Notes under the pieces: model-generated
Databases searched by the model: none
Told to the model about the DNA's origin: nothing
The model's input: the letters and a program-made list of their open reading frames with translations, nothing else
In this document: in pieces, positions 2,060-9,487 of the stretch
Layout of the letters: every line of letters begins with the position of its first letter
Position numbering within the stretch: the stretch's first letter is position 1
Made by a program: the position numbers and the translations under genes
Assembly: GCA_051010795.1 (NCBI GenBank)
Contig: JBPCVE010000273.1
Coordinates: 128-64,127 of the forward strand
DNA: 64,000 nt
Reading direction: 5' to 3'
Source of the DNA: Rubripirellula sp.
Lineage (GTDB): Bacteria > Planctomycetota > Planctomycetia > Pirellulales > Pirellulaceae

Positions 2060-2878
2060 TCAGTCAGGGCGCTGACCTTCAGACAATTTCTGTTCAAACC
2101 GATTGATCACTTCAGGTAGATCAGCGACAGATTCAATCACTTCGTGAGCTCCCGCTGTCGTCAGAGTTGATGCTGCAGCCTCGCATTTTTCGGCGCGTTC
2201 TTTCTGCGAAAGCGACTCAAATTCTTCACGTGACAAGCCAACACAATTTCCCGTGCGACTAATACCAACTGTCCAGCAACCTGCATTGCGTCCGGCCTGA
2301 ACTCCAACGGCTGTATCATCGACTTTGACAATGCTGGCCATGGGATAAATGTCGAGTCGCATGGCTGCTTCATAGAGCAAGAATGGAGCCGGACGTCCCC
2401 TTGGTGCATCTTCTGCGCAAAGCACGCAGTCCGGAGTGTAACCTTGTGGTGTTGCCGCTTCGGTTACGACTTCCATCAACTGTCGTGTGTAACCGGTGGA
2501 AGACCCGATTTTCAGCCCACGTGCTCGCAACTCAGCAACGGCCTCGGCAGCCCCGTCGATCAAACCACAATGTTGATCAAGTGTTTTCAACTGCAGCGGC
2601 AGAAAGTCGGCATACATGGCTTGGATATCGGCATCGGCACACGGTTGACCATACTTGGCCAACCAGGCTTCGGCCACTGTAGGCATCGCAGCAATCGTGG
2701 CGATGTGATCAAGTTTTGCCATTCCCATTGGTTCGCGTGCTTGCGCGACTGTTATTTCCACACCTCGACCGCGAAAGATCTCCTGAAACACAAAAGCTGG
2801 AGCACGACTACCGTAATCCACCATCGTCCCCGCCCAGTCAAGAACGACGCCACGCATGTATTCATATTTAGCATTCAT
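2060..2878 (-). CDS. phnX: phosphonoacetaldehyde hydrolase (phosphonatase)
   Basis: HAD motif DWAGT, Schiff-base Lys motif PMGMAKLDHI, GRPAP and KVDDT; start overlaps the upstream stop (TAATG). Confidence 0.95.
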   Translation of the reverse strand: MNAKYEYMRGVVLDWAGTMVDYGSRAPAFVFQEIFRGRGVEITVAQAREPMGMAKLDHIATIAAMPTVAEAWLAKYGQPCADADIQAMYADFLPLQLKTLDQHCGLIDGAAEAVAELRARGLKIGSSTGYTRQLMEVVTEAATPQGYTPDCVLCAEDAPRGRPAPFLLYEAAMRLDIYPMASIVKVDDTAVGVQAGRNAGCWTVGISRTGNCVGLSREEFESLSQKERAEKCEAAASTLTTAGAHEVIESVADLPEVINRFEQKLSEGQRPD

Positions 2879-4026
2879 TACTTATCACTTTCCCATCGTT
2901 GCCATGCTTGCTCAGCCAAGCCAAAAGACATTGTCATCCCAGCACCACCCGTTCCTACAAACAGATGAACCTTTGGTTCAATCTGCTTTTCGAACACCGG
3001 TAATGTTCCATGTTTGGCATAAATTCCGTGCCAGCGCTGTGTAATTGACCAATCATCCAATTGAATCACTTTTCTTAGTTCATGCAGAATCAGATCATCA
3101 ATCTCGGTCTTATCAAAGGGCGAGATATTCTCACCGTACTCGTGTGAATCCCCCAGCACAACTTCGCCACCGGGAAACACAGATGCCATCACATGAATTC
3201 CATAGTGGTCCAGTAGAGGTGAGTCTTTTTGTATCCGCTCACGCAACTTCTGATGTGCACGGCAGGACTCAAACGAGGTGTAGTGCCTCAATGTCAATCC
3301 GCTCGCAATGTGTGGTGTCTTCTCGTCAATTCCGTCCTGCGGCACGGTCCTCAGCATTTGCAGCTTGCATAATTTCAAATCCGAGGAAGCAAACTCATCG
3401 GGGTAAAGCGTTTGCAAATCGCTTCCACTACAGATAATAACCCGACCAGCATTCCACTGTTTTCCATCAGCAGTCGTGATCTGCCCATCCACCACACTGG
3501 TGACGTGAGTGTTGAAACGACACTCAACCTGGTGCTCTGCAGCCAGCCAGTTCGCGATCGAATGACTCGCTGTTCTGGGATCAACTCTTAGTTCCGTCGG
3601 ACTGTACATGCCACCCAACAGCCCCGTCTGATTCGCCAATCTGGTCCGCTCGGCAATTTGCTGGGCAGTCAGCATGCTGACTTGGTGGGTATGCTGTTGG
3701 CAGAACTCTTGCAGCACATCCAACTCATCTGGTTGATGTGCCAGATGCAAGGAACCACAGGCCTCAACAGAGGTAACCCTCTGGGCTCCCAACTGCATCC
3801 AGAAATCACGTGATTGCAGGGCAATCTGATAGAGGTCCCCTGCAGGCTGGCCTACTGGCCAAATCATGCCAAAATTCCTGACAGAAGCCCCTTGAGCACG
3901 TTGCGTTCTTTCCAGCACCAGAACTGAATGTCCCCGGCTTGCCGCTCGCCAAGCATGAGCAAGTCCGACAATCCCGCCTCCCACAATGGCGACATCGAAG
4001 TCTCCGGGCTGATTATTGCTGGTCAT
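2878..4026 (-). CDS. FAD-dependent oxidoreductase, TIGR03364 type (phosphonate-associated amine oxidase, Pbf-like)
   Basis: GGGIVG dinucleotide motif, GASVRNFGMIWP, GDSHEY, GAGMTMSFGLAE; lies between phnZ and phnX with overlapping start/stop codons. Confidence 0.88.
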   Translation of the reverse strand: MTSNNQPGDFDVAIVGGGIVGLAHAWRAASRGHSVLVLERTQRAQGASVRNFGMIWPVGQPAGDLYQIALQSRDFWMQLGAQRVTSVEACGSLHLAHQPDELDVLQEFCQQHTHQVSMLTAQQIAERTRLANQTGLLGGMYSPTELRVDPRTASHSIANWLAAEHQVECRFNTHVTSVVDGQITTADGKQWNAGRVIICSGSDLQTLYPDEFASSDLKLCKLQMLRTVPQDGIDEKTPHIASGLTLRHYTSFESCRAHQKLRERIQKDSPLLDHYGIHVMASVFPGGEVVLGDSHEYGENISPFDKTEIDDLILHELRKVIQLDDWSITQRWHGIYAKHGTLPVFEKQIEPKVHLFVGTGGAGMTMSFGLAEQAWQRWESDK

Positions 4027-4577
4027 GACTTCTGCGTCTCCAAAACGTTTCTCATGTAGCCTTTGAAATGCTCAATACTGGGCGTGACCATGCCCTCAAC
4101 CTTGGCAAGATCATCCCAACGTCGCAACCGCACGGCATCCCTCCAATGTCGAAAACTCTCAAACTCTTTCATCTCGGCCACCGTAAACGGACCACCTTGC
4201 AAACGAAGGCTTACCTGCGAAGCCTCGCTCAAACGCCCCAGGTAGTCGTCTTCCACCGCACAAAGGTATCGCTTGGCCGCAACATGCAAACGCACAGGAG
4301 TTGCGACTTGGTCACCGAAGGATGACTTAAGGTAAACTTCTCCTAACGCTTCATGCTTGTCATCAACCCCCTGGCCCGAAGAATTTTCAGGCAGATCATG
4401 GATCAGGTGTCCGATATCATGCAATAACGCAGCCACGATCAACAGCGGGGTGGCGTTTTCACTTTCCGCGAGTGTTGCCGCCTGCAGCGCATGCTCTCGC
4501 TGGGAAATCAGTTCACCCCCATAGAGTGAGTCGCCACGCTGAGCAAATAGGCTGACGATGCCTTCAATGATCCTCAT
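4023..4577 (-). CDS. phnZ: HD-domain diiron oxygenase, PhnZ family
   Basis: YGGE-ISQREHALQAA, ALLHDIGH, DDKHE, LHVAAKRYL, SLRLQGGP, LRRWDDLAK; start placed at ATG 4577 (MRIIEG). Confidence 0.88.
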   Translation of the reverse strand: MRIIEGIVSLFAQRGDSLYGGELISQREHALQAATLAESENATPLLIVAALLHDIGHLIHDLPENSSGQGVDDKHEALGEVYLKSSFGDQVATPVRLHVAAKRYLCAVEDDYLGRLSEASQVSLRLQGGPFTVAEMKEFESFRHWRDAVRLRRWDDLAKVEGMVTPSIEHFKGYMRNVLETQKS

Positions 4578-5685
4578 GGCTTGCCCCTGGCCGCACGGCA
4601 ACCCGGATGGGCCGGTGTTTTTCAGCGTATCGAATGGCATGATCGATTTGCTCCAATGAAAACTCGGCTGAGACCAGTTCAGCAAATGGAAAGGACTGAT
4701 GTTGCTCGCTCAGGAACTGTACTGCATCAACAAGATCAGCCGGAGCATAATTGTGAATGCCGTGGATCTGCCAGCACTTCCGAATGACCTGCTCCGGATT
4801 CAGCTTCATGTCATCACACTTCATGACCGATCCGACGAGAACGATTCTGGCACCGATATTCGCAGACTCGATCGCAGACTCAATGGCATCTACAGATCCT
4901 GAAAAATCCATCACGACATCAAATCCACTGGAATCGATCCGGTCGCCAGCTCCAAATTGCTGTGCCAGACTCAAACGTTCGGGTGCAGGATCTGACATCA
5001 CCGTCGCATGAGCCCCCCGATAGGTTGCCACAGCGGCTGCTGTTAAACCAAGCAAGCCCGCCCCAAGCAACAACACCCGTTTTCCCTCCACTGAACCAAC
5101 CGCATTGAATGCAGCCATGACTGTTGCAGTCGCACAATTGGCCGGACAGGCAACATGATCGGGAAGTTCATCGGGCACTTTGATGATCGTCGAATCGTGA
5201 CGCAGTAAAATCGCCTCCGCAAGACCACCGCTAAGTGCAAAGCGTCCCTCGGCTCTGCCATGTCCATATTTGTGAAGGTGACGACATTTCTGAGGCAATC
5301 CACGGCGGCATCGGTCACAGCGTCCACAGGACACACAAATGGACCAGGTGATGCGATCTCCTGGCTTCAGCGGATCCCCATGAACATCCACCGCCGGTTC
5401 GTCTGAAACTTCCTCCACGACACCCAGAATCTCATGACCCAGAATCGAAGGACTCGATTCCTTTCTTCTGCCCGCAATCGTGTGTAAATCACTACCACAC
5501 AGAGTGCAACACACTACCCGCACCAATGTCTCACCAAGCTGAAGCTCTGGCCGCGGCAAGAGACAAAACTCCAAGGGACGCTTTGCCTCGTGAAAAACTG
5601 CCGCGAGCACTCCTTCCTCCGAACTCTCTTCCTGTGAAGTCAAAACCGGAGGGTGATCCTGCTCTGGAGTGAACGATTCTTCCAT
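4564..5685 (-). CDS. zinc-binding alcohol dehydrogenase, phosphonate-catabolism-associated (TIGR03366-like)
   Basis: CGSDLH, GHE, CGRCDRCRRGLPQKC structural Zn site, NCATAT, GAGLLG, HNY; overlaps phnZ by 14 nt; start uncertain. Confidence 0.85.
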   Translation of the reverse strand: MEESFTPEQDHPPVLTSQEESSEEGVLAAVFHEAKRPLEFCLLPRPELQLGETLVRVVCCTLCGSDLHTIAGRRKESSPSILGHEILGVVEEVSDEPAVDVHGDPLKPGDRITWSICVSCGRCDRCRRGLPQKCRHLHKYGHGRAEGRFALSGGLAEAILLRHDSTIIKVPDELPDHVACPANCATATVMAAFNAVGSVEGKRVLLLGAGLLGLTAAAVATYRGAHATVMSDPAPERLSLAQQFGAGDRIDSSGFDVVMDFSGSVDAIESAIESANIGARIVLVGSVMKCDDMKLNPEQVIRKCWQIHGIHNYAPADLVDAVQFLSEQHQSFPFAELVSAEFSLEQIDHAIRYAEKHRPIRVAVRPGASHEDH

Positions 5686-5776
5686 CTTTTTTCTTTCAGT
5701 CACTTTCAGTTTCGAAAATTGACAAGAATCCATCTCAACATCGATCAACATTCAGCGGTGACGAACATCGCCCCCA

Positions 5777-7129
5777 TCAGTCAAGCGTTTCTGCGTGATC
5801 ATTCCCATGCTCGAGCGAATCGACTTTCTGGACAAGCACGCGTTGAAAATACACCAATGCGAGCAGCAAAGCCACAAACGAAAGGACAGCAATCACGGCC
5901 AGAAGTTGCAGGAAGTACGGCAGCACCTCACGGGAATTCCCCACAGAATTACGGGCAACCAGCACCACACCATACCCGAGGTACCCCAGCGAATCTGCCA
6001 CATACAGCAGGAATCCCATGTTGGCGGGTCGACCGGACGCGGCAACCAACCGCTCAAAAACCGTTGTGTGAAATGCAACGTAGGGCAGGTAGAGGCCAAT
6101 TCCACAGGCAATCATGAAACCGAGCGGCCCCAACCACCCCAAATATTGCATCCCCGCAGACGCACCAATCAACACAAAGGCGACACACATCATCCCGAGC
6201 GTGACCCGCAGGGCAGTGAGGTTGTGAGATATCCAGATGGCACCAGCGTTCAAGGCAGTAACACAAATAGCGACGATGAATTCGGACGTTGCATAACCCC
6301 AAGGTTCCTCCGTCACACCCATGTCACGCCAAAGCTCGACACCAAAGTCATCACGCACCGTACGCAATAATGTGATGCCCATATAAACCAGAAGGATCAA
6401 ACAGAAGCCAGGCCAGAAGGCGGTAAAGAAACTCCACCGCGCGGCGCGATCCATTGCCTTTCGTTCTGAACGCTCACGAAGATCACTGACGTCAGGCCGA
6501 GGTGTTTTCTGCAACACCCAGACGGCAACCAACAGCGGAGGAAGAAACAGGAAACCAGTGACCATTGGCATCTGAAACTCATTGACCCCCATGTCCTGAA
6601 TCAACCACTGCCCAATCGACTTCACTGCCCCCGATGACATGATAAAACTCGCGCACAGGACGGCAGACATGGCCTCGGTATGCCGACGGCCTTCCAAGTA
6701 GGACATCACAAGGCCGAAAACCATTCCCAAAGGAAGCCCGTTCCAGAACAACATGATCGGTTTCCAGCCCAAGGGAGCAAACGCAAACCCGACCAGCGCC
6801 AACTCCGCAAATACAATCAGCGCAATGATGGTTCCAGCACGATTGCGTGTCTGCATCTCTGAAACCACTTTGATCCCAATCACTTTCGACAGCATGTATC
6901 CCGTCAATTGCGAAATGACCAGCATGGTCTTCAGACCCAGCACCACCAGTGGGCCGCCAGCGATCGTCAGAAAGCCCAGTTCAACAGCCGGATAATCTTC
7001 GTAGGTTGCTGCAGTGAATGGTTTCCGGAACGCATACATGCAAAAGTAGGTTGAGAATGCAGCAACAGCAGCAATCGCCAAATGAAGTTTCGAATTCAGC
7101 GGGGGCGTATTCGGCCTGGGCGTCTTCAT
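5777..7129 (-). CDS. DUF5690-family polytopic membrane protein (MFS-like; probable phosphonate transporter)
   Basis: About 12 hydrophobic segments; YFCMYAFRKPF, GYMLSKVIGIK, NGLPLGMVFG, YLEGRR, YVADSLGYLG; first gene of the phosphonate operon. Confidence 0.8.
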   Translation of the reverse strand: MKTPRPNTPPLNSKLHLAIAAVAAFSTYFCMYAFRKPFTAATYEDYPAVELGFLTIAGGPLVVLGLKTMLVISQLTGYMLSKVIGIKVVSEMQTRNRAGTIIALIVFAELALVGFAFAPLGWKPIMLFWNGLPLGMVFGLVMSYLEGRRHTEAMSAVLCASFIMSSGAVKSIGQWLIQDMGVNEFQMPMVTGFLFLPPLLVAVWVLQKTPRPDVSDLRERSERKAMDRAARWSFFTAFWPGFCLILLVYMGITLLRTVRDDFGVELWRDMGVTEEPWGYATSEFIVAICVTALNAGAIWISHNLTALRVTLGMMCVAFVLIGASAGMQYLGWLGPLGFMIACGIGLYLPYVAFHTTVFERLVAASGRPANMGFLLYVADSLGYLGYGVVLVARNSVGNSREVLPYFLQLLAVIAVLSFVALLLALVYFQRVLVQKVDSLEHGNDHAETLD

Positions 7130-7640
7130 CAAAGCTTCACTTCCCAAAGAGGCAGAAAGAAGTTCAACCGACAGAAACCCGACGTCTGGCCGCGTTTCGT
7201 GCACCATTCATACCAACTGGCCGCTCCTGCCGTAACCGTCACGAGGCGGAGTTGGCAAAATCCGATGGGGGATGCACTCAATTTCGATCATGAAAGCCCC
7301 GCAATGCTTCCATCCAAGTCTGACAGCCCGCAATTCAGCTGAATCTCTGGGAGAAAATCTGTTCCGCCTCCGTGGTTTCCACTCTGGTTGTGAAATATTT
7401 CCTTCGCCCAACAGAGTGAGAGATCAGCGTGTCGAAATGCAAACGATTAACCACACATGCGGATGAACGGGGTCTTGGACCGGACATTGAAGGGTACAAC
7501 ACATCCTTGAAGAGCTGGGACCGTTGCCACCCTCAACGCTCTCACGTCCTGCTCCACATGCACCGAGATGTTATGATCCTCGCACTCCAGCGTTTGACTG
7601 GGGATTCACGCAGAAAAGATAAACAAACAGGTACTGCAAC

Positions 7641-8480
7641 ATGACTGACATGTCGGTCTTGATCATGATCGTCTCAGCGGCCGCGATCATATTTTTTGTC
7701 AAATTTGGTCTACTGCGTGGAATTGATAATATCGCCAATGCGATGTCATGGAGTGCGAAATCACGCGGTCAGGCAACCGGGTACGCAACTTCAGTGCCTG
7801 AATTGGTTTGCCTGGTATCGGCAGGGCTGGCAGGGGTCTGGGAAGCAGGCCTTTGGAATATCGCCAGTTCCAACATCATCAACTCCGGGCTGATGCTCTG
7901 CGCTGTGCTGTTTTACCGCCAATTTGGCGAACTGTTGAATGTTCGATTCATCGACGAAATTGGATTCGCAAGCTTGGCGGTGCTGATCCCCATTTTGCTG
8001 ATGCACTTTGGCATGGACCAGCAATGGTACCTCGTGCCCATCCTGCTCGGCTTCTTTGTGATCTATCGCTTTGTTGATCGCAGGATTAACCGGGTATCTC
8101 CCGATGCGATCAGTGATTCTGAGTCGGAAGAGCCAGCTGTGGGCAGTCTGCCATTTGGAATCATTCTGGGCATCTGTGCGTTGGTCGCCATCGCAATCGC
8201 GGGAATATTCCTGGGTGATGCGACCGCCAAAGTGGTTGACGAAATGGATGTGAGCCCCGAAGCGGCGGGCTGGATCCTTGGTGTCGTAACGAGCATCCCA
8301 GAACTGGTCAGTTTCTTTGCCATCTATGCAGCCTCCAAACGTGCAGGGAAATCTCATTCCCTCAATGATACCCAGGAAGCCCTCGATAACCTGACAGGTT
8401 CCAATATGGCGAACGTCAGCATCGTCTATCCGGTGGGACTCGCAGCTTATTTGCTGGCCCAACTGACCATGGGCAGCTGA
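7641..8480 (+). CDS. Ca2+/cation antiporter (Na/Ca exchanger superfamily) membrane protein
   Basis: Two alpha-repeat motifs, ATSVPEL...NIASSNIIN and VTSIPEL...NLTGSNMAN; multiple TM helices. Confidence 0.75.
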   Translation: MTDMSVLIMIVSAAAIIFFVKFGLLRGIDNIANAMSWSAKSRGQATGYATSVPELVCLVSAGLAGVWEAGLWNIASSNIINSGLMLCAVLFYRQFGELLNVRFIDEIGFASLAVLIPILLMHFGMDQQWYLVPILLGFFVIYRFVDRRINRVSPDAISDSESEEPAVGSLPFGIILGICALVAIAIAGIFLGDATAKVVDEMDVSPEAAGWILGVVTSIPELVSFFAIYAASKRAGKSHSLNDTQEALDNLTGSNMANVSIVYPVGLAAYLLAQLTMGS

Positions 8481-8644: not shown

Positions 8645-9487
8645 ATGTCTGCTTTGTCCGAAACACAAATCAAAGCGTACAACGAGGACGGCTATTTCTT
8701 TGCAAGAGAACTATTCTCTGCGGAAGAAATCCAGTTGCTGCGTGAAACAGCAACCAATGATCACGCCATGGATCAGGCAGCCTCACTGAGAGACGACGGT
8801 ACTGGCGCTAGCGTACGACTCACGCTGTGGAATCATCCTGGCGATGGCATCTATGGCATGTTCGCCCGCAGTCATCGTGTGGTCGATGCAGTCGAGCAAC
8901 TGCTCGATGACGAAGCGTATCACTACCATTCCAAGATGATTCTGAAAGATGCCAGAGTAGGTGGTGCGTGGGCCTGGCATCAGGACTATGGCTACTGGTA
9001 CCAGAATGGGTTGCTATTTCCAAACTTGTGCAGCGTGATGATCGCCGTCGACACAGCAACCGAACAAAATGGCTGCCTCCAAGTGCTAAAGGGTTCACAC
9101 CGCATGGGCAGAGTGAATCACATCCTGTCGGGTGATCAGGCGGGCGCGGATCTGGAACGTGTTGAGCATGCCAAGGAAGCATTCCCTCTGGTCCACTGCA
9201 CAATGACTGCGGGAGACGCCCTCTTTTTCCATCCCAATCTTCTGCATGCCTCCGCTGCCAACCGCTCTGACGATCCGCGTTGGGCATTGATCTGCTGTTA
9301 CAACGCACGCAGCAACAATCCCTACAAAGAATCCCACCATCCGTCTTACACCAAACTGGACAAGGTAGACGATGAAATGATCATCCGAGTGGGGCAAAAC
9401 GACGCGCAACGTGCTCGAGTTGACTTTGCCAATCTTGACTCGGATGATCGAAGCGCCACCAGTTTGTCCGATGACCCAAATCAGTAG
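8645..9487 (+). CDS. phytanoyl-CoA dioxygenase (PhyH) family Fe(II)/2-oxoglutarate dioxygenase
   Basis: HYHSKMILK, WHQDYGYWY (HxD), NGCLQVLKGSH, LLHASAAN (distal His), distal Arg in DDPRW. Confidence 0.9.
   Translation: MSALSETQIKAYNEDGYFFARELFSAEEIQLLRETATNDHAMDQAASLRDDGTGASVRLTLWNHPGDGIYGMFARSHRVVDAVEQLLDDEAYHYHSKMILKDARVGGAWAWHQDYGYWYQNGLLFPNLCSVMIAVDTATEQNGCLQVLKGSHRMGRVNHILSGDQAGADLERVEHAKEAFPLVHCTMTAGDALFFHPNLLHASAANRSDDPRWALICCYNARSNNPYKESHHPSYTKLDKVDDEMIIRVGQNDAQRARVDFANLDSDDRSATSLSDDPNQ

Follow-up and report, generated by a model that had tools for sequence, protein, structure and literature searches.

A DUF5690 membrane protein, apparently a very distant relative of GlpT and UhpT, as a candidate phosphonate importer in planctomycete operons

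We analyzed a DUF5690 membrane protein encoded in a 64,000-nucleotide stretch of the marine planctomycete Rubripirellula sp. (GenBank assembly GCA_051010795.1, contig JBPCVE010000273.1, positions 128 to 64,127; called the window in what follows), where it heads an operon of phosphonate-degrading enzymes. Judging from sequence comparisons and structure prediction, this protein is probably a secondary importer of 2-carbon phosphonates that holds its cargo in a phosphoryl-binding site of the type found in the organophosphate:phosphate antiporter (OPA) family, which includes GlpT and UhpT. An initial annotation of the stretch had suggested that it may be a phosphonate importer of the major facilitator superfamily (MFS). 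That proposal is supported in silico by distant homology, by the conservation of binding-site residues, by the gene neighborhood and by a classical OPA carrier that takes the place of DUF5690 in an equivalent operon. DUF5690 is a highly diverged version of a known kind of carrier and involves no new principle; what it gains here is a functional hypothesis for a family annotated as unknown.

The gene runs along the minus strand from an ATG at 7129 to a stop at 5777, and the open reading frame (ORF) as read in the window encodes 450 amino acids. The plus strand of 5777-7129 has stops throughout and holds no open frame. An alternative in-frame ATG at 7207 would make the protein 26 residues longer. 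We consider the start at 7129 to be right because the upstream ATG is not conserved in an 80%-identical relative (L036), the ca. 20 bases 5' of ATG 7129 are kept in that relative, and homologues are mostly 430 to 450 amino acids long. The protein matched Pfam PF18943 (DUF5690) with 423.1 bits, against a gathering threshold of 25 bits, and an E value of 1.3e-126 over model positions 12 to 381 of 382, and no further Pfam or NCBIfam match was found. Together with the evidence on the start codon, this agrees with the coordinates and the family given in the initial annotation, and the three motifs that it had quoted are all present (YFCMYAFRKPF at residues 28 to 38, GYMLSKVIG at 77 to 85 and VYMGITLLR at 248 to 256). 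The closest database relatives come from Rubripirellula and Rhodopirellula genomes.

The predicted structure, obtained with 33 homologues (mean pLDDT of 87.5, pTM of 0.87), has 12 transmembrane (TM) helices, forming two six-helix bundles, and a small hairpin insert of 12 residues between TM1 and TM2. It matched solved MFS carriers over its whole length, bearing out both the roughly 12 TM helices and the MFS fold proposed earlier. Structural scores for unrelated MFS families were nearly equal to those for SLC37 carriers, and the identity of DUF5690 to GlpT and UhpT was about 12 to 14% in structural alignments and 18% in the profile alignment.

Simple searches did not link the protein to the OPA family. 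No PDB chain was matched at an E value of ≤10, either by phmmer with the single protein or by the profile of the shallower of our two family alignments (A1); the window protein matched no OPA model (TIGR00881, TIGR00712) at an E value of ≤1; and A1 aligned with the OPA profile in a weak C-terminal match (E value of 0.028). These results weigh against a GlpT/UhpT-type identity. A BLASTP comparison of DUF5690 with GlpT was not significant (E value of 0.18), and the OPA models were absent from the 25 NCBIfam families listed for 86 DUF5690 members. The general model PF07690 (MFS_1) did not match the window protein at an E value of ≤1, and 13 of the 86 members did match it (best E value of 5.7e-8).

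With hhalign, the comparison of the family profile with the single sequences of GlpT, UhpT, UhpC, EmrD, DgoT, LacY, NarK and XylE gave scores of 15 to 35, too weak to rank families, and for this reason we used profile-profile comparison. The query profile was the deeper family alignment (A2), made of 86 full-length DUF5690 representatives that share 27 to 53% identity with the window protein; the family from which they were taken comprises 2057 clusters at 50% identity. The OPA core profile contained E. coli GlpT, UhpT and UhpC plus six planctomycete OPA proteins. The control was the ACS family, the nearest sister of OPA, the two profiles matching each other at an E value of 1e-46. A DgoT search across 41 genomes yielded only three homologues, and the control profile was composed of DgoT and 13 planctomycete relatives taken from weaker TIGR00881 matches and classified by phmmer. 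A2 matched the OPA core with a probability of 95% over 362 columns in local mode (E value of 3.7e-8) and of 97.8% in global mode (E value of 3.9e-12), and a set of nine divergent OPA-like proteins with 93%, while the probability against the ACS control was 1.5 to 3.7%, in an out-of-register alignment. Along similar lines, when the DUF5690 hidden Markov model (HMM) was run against 2714 ORFs, the top non-self match was an OPA-like protein from the window's own genome (E value of 1e-5), followed by another OPA-like protein and UhpT, with no ACS protein. The profile comparison that the initial annotation had proposed thus places DUF5690 with OPA. The GlpT/UhpT-type identity that it had suggested holds as a specific remote homology and fails at the level of the OPA sequence models: as far as these alignments indicate, a specific but very distant kinship ties DUF5690 to the GlpT/UhpT/SLC37 (OPA) lineage, and not to ACS, and by every curated threshold the protein falls outside the OPA family. 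The top non-self protein (G000:C321:5171-6697, L018), itself a divergent OPA-like MFS protein, has the TM1 Arg, the TM2 Lys and the TM11 Asp and Tyr of DUF5690.

The residue map from GlpT to DUF5690 was identical in the local, global and low-mact modes of hhalign, and the counts that follow are out of 86 members. The basic triad of GlpT, whose contexts and numbering the initial annotation had given correctly (as judged by the E. coli K-12 glpT translation) and claimed to be conserved, is indeed kept throughout the family, R45 aligning with R35 in TM1 (86/86), K80 with K82 in TM2 (86/86) and R269 with R256 in TM7 (85/86). The lysine after the first arginine, K46, aligns with K36 (81/86). Tyrosines Y38, Y42, Y76, Y362 and Y393 of GlpT correspond to Y28 (86/86), Y32 (84/86), Y78 (85/86), Y347 (75/86) and Y383 (85/86), and W138 corresponds to position 138, which is aromatic in every member (tryptophan in 69, phenylalanine in 13, tyrosine in 4). 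R35 and R256 occupy the positions of the essential TM1 and TM7 arginines (R45 and R269 in GlpT, R46 and R275 in UhpT), and K82, Y78 and position 138 those of the phosphate subsite (K80, Y76 and W138 in GlpT; K64, Y60 and W118 in G6PT). Substrate binding by GlpT is lost in the R45K mutant and diminished by K80A, R269K and K46L (PMC4598623), and human G6PT has both the relay (K80-R45-R269) and the phosphate subsite (Y76/K80/W138) in common with GlpT (PMC12552596). By this alignment, the R35/K82/R256 triad is expected to line the pore. The family also has invariant charged residues of its own, namely, K67, E146, R148, R259 and D379.

DUF5690 is the first of five same-strand genes separated by gaps or overlaps of ≤25 nucleotides (Table 1), and family scans of the window found no ABC transporter gene in or adjoining the operon, so that the gene order and the family matches agree with the earlier description of a phosphonate operon lacking an ABC transporter. 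The ORF of the HD-domain oxygenase is open to 4685, reaching 120 nucleotides into the 3' end of PbfG; the match to its family sets in at Met37 (base 4577), and a start there implies a 14-nucleotide overlap with PbfG, typical of translational coupling. The next overlaps measure 4 nucleotides (HD oxygenase and PbfD) and 1 nucleotide (PbfD and PhnX). TIGR03364 enzymes (PbfD) oxidize 2-aminoethylphosphonate (2-AEP) and N-methyl-AEP to phosphonoacetaldehyde (PMC10590968), and PbfG enzymes, the pf00107 zinc alcohol dehydrogenases of phosphonate clusters, are 2-hydroxyethylphosphonate dehydrogenases (PMC13576164). From its membership in pf00107 and its gene context, we infer that the TIGR03366 gene of the window is PbfG. 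The operon would therefore funnel several 2-carbon phosphonates into phosphonoacetaldehyde, or lead straight to phosphate. The papers on PbfD and PbfG show "putative transporter genes" in gray, without discussion (PMC10590968, PMC13576164).

In order to describe the genomic context across relatives, all ORFs within 9 kb of DUF5690 were clustered in 81 loci, which are biased to Planctomycetota and Alphaproteobacteria because they were collected with the shallower alignment A1. Of the 65 loci whose sequence continues for 5 kb or more downstream, 63 had PbfG, PbfD, PhnX or the HD oxygenase beside DUF5690. PbfG was the commonest neighbor (47 loci), usually starting about 50 nucleotides past the DUF5690 stop, followed by PbfD and PhnX (43 each) and the HD oxygenase (34). 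An ATPase of the ABC type occurred within 9 kb in 3 of the 81 loci, and DUF5690 was the sole conserved transporter of these phosphonate loci, the kind of neighborhood that the initial annotation had proposed to survey. Among distant members of the family, a 28%-identical one is followed by a true PhnX, scoring 360 bits, and by PhnW, scoring 588 bits, and a 27%-identical one lies beside a TIGR03364 gene, an HD oxygenase, a PhnX-like hydrolase and SusC/SusD.

Further evidence came from a classical OPA carrier found in the place of DUF5690. Among 101 sampled Planctomycetota genomes, 6 had DUF5690 and 5 had PhnX; in three of the latter, DUF5690 was located within 4 kb of phnX, and the other two, from one genus, lacked DUF5690. 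In one of these two, genome G095 of a related planctomycete, an operon preceded by a divergent AraC-type regulator encodes PbfD, an OPA-family MFS protein, an HD oxygenase, PhnX, PhnW and PbfG. The MFS carrier matched TIGR00881 with 214 bits and the GlpT model with 169 bits. The enzymes of this operon are those of the window operon, and the place of the transporter is taken by a genuine member of the GlpT family. In this small sample, where the two OPA-bearing genomes are kin, we regard the replacement as the strongest comparative argument that DUF5690 fills the role of a phosphonate carrier of the OPA type. The OPA protein of G095 keeps the lysine equivalent to K80 and has an Asp at the position of DUF5690 D379.

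A precedent for a non-ABC, OPA-type phosphonate importer that is active when phosphate is plentiful is AepP of P. putida BIRD-1 (PPUBIRD1_3129; Murphy et al. 2021), an OPA-family permease 27.75% identical to GlpT (E value of 9e-37) and required for phosphate-insensitive growth on 2-AEP as a nitrogen source (PMC8316502). Like DUF5690, AepP is an MFS carrier encoded with phnW/phnX-type genes, and both keep the TM1 Arg-Lys pair. We compared the two by way of the published AepP data, and DUF5690 is not AepP, because it has no comparable similarity to GlpT: AepP is a regular OPA member by sequence, with a Gln at the K80 position (supplementary alignment, PMC8316502), whereas DUF5690 keeps the Lys, shows no similarity to GlpT detectable by pairwise or HMM searches and has a Pfam family of its own.

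With GlpT and UhpT themselves (TC 2.A.1.4; PDB 1PW4), DUF5690 shares the 12-TM MFS fold, the family-wide basic triad and five tyrosines described above, and the motifs Y-x3-Y-x2-R-K-x-F (TM1), Y-x2-S-K (TM2), L-L-R (TM7) and G-Y-L-G (TM11). It differs in the TM1-TM2 hairpin insert, in the extra invariant charged residues, in the lack of conservation at the positions of GlpT H165 and E299 and in a degenerate motif A after TM2 (S-E-M instead of S-D-R). The proposed substrates are also different, phosphonates in DUF5690 and phosphate esters in GlpT and UhpT. Both GlpT and UhpT do carry the phosphonate fosfomycin. The K64-R28-K240 relay and the Y60/K64/W118 subsite of SLC37A4 (G6PT) correspond to K82-R35-R256 and Y78/K82/position 138 of DUF5690, while SLC37A4 and SLC37A2 are eukaryotic glucose-6-phosphate:phosphate exchangers of the endoplasmic reticulum with a sugar subsite that has no DUF5690 counterpart. 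The ABC importers PhnCDE and AepXVW would do the same job, supplying phosphonates to PhnW/PhnX-type enzymes, but they are ATP driven and dependent on binding proteins, their fold is unrelated to that of DUF5690, and such systems are rarely found beside it, as the counts of ABC ATPases indicate.

Substrate identity, direction of transport and, above all, coupling mode are what we infer from these data. DUF5690 would be an inner-membrane MFS secondary carrier that brings in 2-carbon phosphonates, the candidates being 2-AEP, its N-methyl and 1-hydroxy forms and 2-hydroxyethylphosphonate, which would feed the four enzymes encoded downstream. The phosphonate group would be gripped by a site of the GlpT/UhpT/SLC37 type, a Lys-Arg-Arg relay (K82 in TM2, R35 in TM1 and R256 in TM7) ringed by Y28, Y32, Y78, Y347, Y383 and the aromatic residue at position 138. 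Transport may then proceed by alternating-access anion exchange, external phosphonate entering while the phosphate freed by PhnX and PhnZ leaves, as the initial annotation had suggested. Since phosphonate would be exchanged for released phosphate, such uptake would be phosphorus neutral and suit the use of phosphonates for nitrogen or carbon. We lean toward this phosphate antiport only tentatively, at rather less than an even chance. The retention of the full relay argues for it, as do the precedent of AepP and the fact that the pathway frees one phosphate per substrate inside the cell. A literature search on DUF5690, PF18943 and Caulobacter PhoB targets found no functional statement.

Several observations count against antiport and in favor of the same importer, with the same OPA-derived site, being proton coupled (or a uniporter), which would give net uptake and phosphorus scavenging, with D379 as the protonation site. 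GlpT switch residues are lost: H165 is replaced by F162 (F in 60/86 members) and E299 by P or I at position 285, both unconserved, and the counterpart of D274 is Asn in 53/86 and Asp in 15/86, so that the network of H165 and the K46-D274/E299 salt bridges is missing, though K46 is kept as K36. D379 in TM11, invariant in all 86 members and a Gly in GlpT, is one helical turn before Y383, the equivalent of the pore-lining Y393 of GlpT, and is the kind of residue used by proton-coupled MFS symporters. The divergence of DUF5690 from OPA (E value of 4e-8) is also far greater than that of the proton-coupled ACS family. Some clusters consist of DUF5690, PbfG and PhnX only; there phosphate would be the main prize, and a 1:1 exchange gains none. 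Flavobacterium SusCD-type clusters that resemble these loci in holding phnX, an oxidoreductase gene ("dao") and inner-membrane transporters are induced by phosphate depletion, and one DUF5690 locus, that of the 27%-identical member, has this SusCD-type architecture. In one Fuerstiella genome, a near-perfect Pho box precedes DUF5690 (see below). Nevertheless, the characterized transporting members of the nearest lineage (GlpT, UhpT, PgtP and SLC37A1/2/4) are all phosphate-linked exchangers. D379 need not be a proton site, because the antiporter UhpT (D388) and two planctomycete OPA proteins likewise have an acidic TM11 residue near the site. The sequences upstream of DUF5690 show no enrichment of Pho boxes, and scavenging could be served by the PhnD-type ABC binding protein of the genome. 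Proton coupling is, in our opinion, a possible alternative, to be regarded with some doubt.

The cargo itself could be another one: DUF5690 might export phosphate or a product, ridding the cell of the phosphate that C-P cleavage sets free, or it might import phosphate esters. The conserved site recognizes a phosphoryl group and not the carbon chain, and cells growing on 2-AEP as a nitrogen source do export phosphate (PMC8316502). However, the 81 phosphonate loci would then be left with no conserved importer, an operon with nothing but an exporter would lack a supply of substrate, the known analogue AepP is an importer, and in G095 the equivalent position is taken by a classical OPA carrier, all of which makes a different cargo unlikely. 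A transporter-like sensor of external phosphonate, as UhpC is for glucose-6-phosphate, appears far more improbable still: UhpC, of the same lineage, keeps R46, K82 and R266, but no histidine kinase or other signaling partner was conserved beside DUF5690 in the 81 loci, and the operon would be deprived of any carrier.

Phosphonates make up a large pool of organic phosphorus in sea and soil, and the enzymes of this operon were characterized only in 2021-2026; a DUF5690 importer would fill the transport gap of their pathways. The family is spread over several phyla, in operons without an ABC importer. In the broadest form of the phosphonate:phosphate exchange proposal, DUF5690 would be a separate, ancient offshoot of OPA on which Planctomycetota, Bacteroidota and some Proteobacteria mainly rely for phosphonate transport, a proposal that, taken as a whole, we find doubtful. 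If true, aminophosphonate breakdown by abundant particle-attached bacteria would be phosphorus neutral, with phosphate released straight into the water, and a molecular cause would be at hand for phosphate-insensitive phosphonate mineralization beyond the AepX and AepP systems. The coupling mode decides whether imported phosphorus is kept by the bacteria or returned to the environment. An assigned function and a set of site residues would also sharpen the gene markers used for phosphonate utilization in metagenomes.

Table 1. Location of the DUF5690 operon features in the window and of the equivalent operon of genome G095
Feature	Position	Strand	Basis
PhnX, phosphonoacetaldehyde hydrolase (phosphate release)	2060..2878	-	TIGR01422, 343.4 bits, over cut-off
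PbfD-type FAD oxidoreductase (2-AEP or N-methyl-AEP to phosphonoacetaldehyde)	2878..4026	-	TIGR03364, 435.5 bits
PhnZ-like HD-domain phosphonate oxygenase	4023..4577	-	TIGR03276 Phn-HD, 219.7 bits, over cut-off; Pfam HD
PbfG-type zinc alcohol dehydrogenase (2-hydroxyethylphosphonate to phosphonoacetaldehyde)	4564..5751	-	TIGR03366, 380.7 bits, over cut-off
DUF5690 protein, 12-TM MFS-fold carrier, candidate phosphonate importer	5777..7129	-	PF18943, predicted model, hhalign to OPA
Upstream intergenic region, expected promoter of the operon	7130..7640	-	Alignment with L034, L035, L036
G095 operon with classical OPA carrier	L129:5123-11379 = G095:C1 about 6,999,100-7,005,400		

Regarding regulation, when the window was aligned with its close relatives L034, L035 and L036, conservation in the upstream intergenic region was confined to the final ca. 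20 nucleotides ahead of the ATG and to a block near -75, and no Pho box of the E. coli type was found there in the window. Within 400 nucleotides upstream of DUF5690, the 81 loci contained 3 such boxes versus about 2 expected, that is, no enrichment. The Fuerstiella box (CTGTCAAACGTCTGTCAT, L051:2280-2297) has a single mismatch and is located 327 bp upstream of DUF5690; the 1.37 Mb of loci contain only one other site of this quality. Four marine RNA libraries yielded contigs that overlap parts of DUF5690, PbfG, PbfD and PhnX, with at least 99% identity in one library; as these are assembled contigs, they indicate presence in RNA libraries only, and not transcription or cotranscription.

In the rest of the genome, a PhnD-type phosphonate-binding protein (PF12974, 186 bits) is encoded on a 2.5-kb contig (G000:C471:292-987), and because of its presence the organism probably has an ABC phosphonate system elsewhere. 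PhnJ and PhnW above the cut-off, as well as PstS (PF12849), were not found in this assembly, which is 82% complete.

The only other recurrent neighbors in the 81 loci were sulfatases and planctomycete DUF1501 and PSCyt2/PSD1 pairs. The DUF1501 (sulfatase-like) pairs in 11 loci and the PSCyt2/PSD1 (DUF1549/DUF1553) pairs in 6 are situated a few kilobases upstream of DUF5690 (for example, L061:8418-9806 and L050:5731-8112), and their proximity may reflect no more than their abundance in Planctomycetota. Recurrent small ORFs by the enzymes (clusters c5, c8, c12, c15 and c16) were rejected as antisense shadow ORFs.

On the opposite strand of the window, 1.5 kb upstream of DUF5690, a PhyH-family Fe/2-oxoglutarate dioxygenase is encoded at 8645-9487 (+). 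It scored 55.6 bits with the model of PhnY (methylphosphonate hydroxylase), whose cut-off is 500, and 73 bits with that of ectoine hydroxylase. This enzyme could supply a hydroxylated substrate for the PhnZ-like oxygenase, and it is not among the conserved neighbors in the 81 DUF5690 loci. Divergent from the operon, a Na/Ca-exchanger-like membrane protein with two PF01699 repeats is encoded at 7641-8480 (+), and the 5' part of its gene is covered by RNA-library contigs of all four runs.

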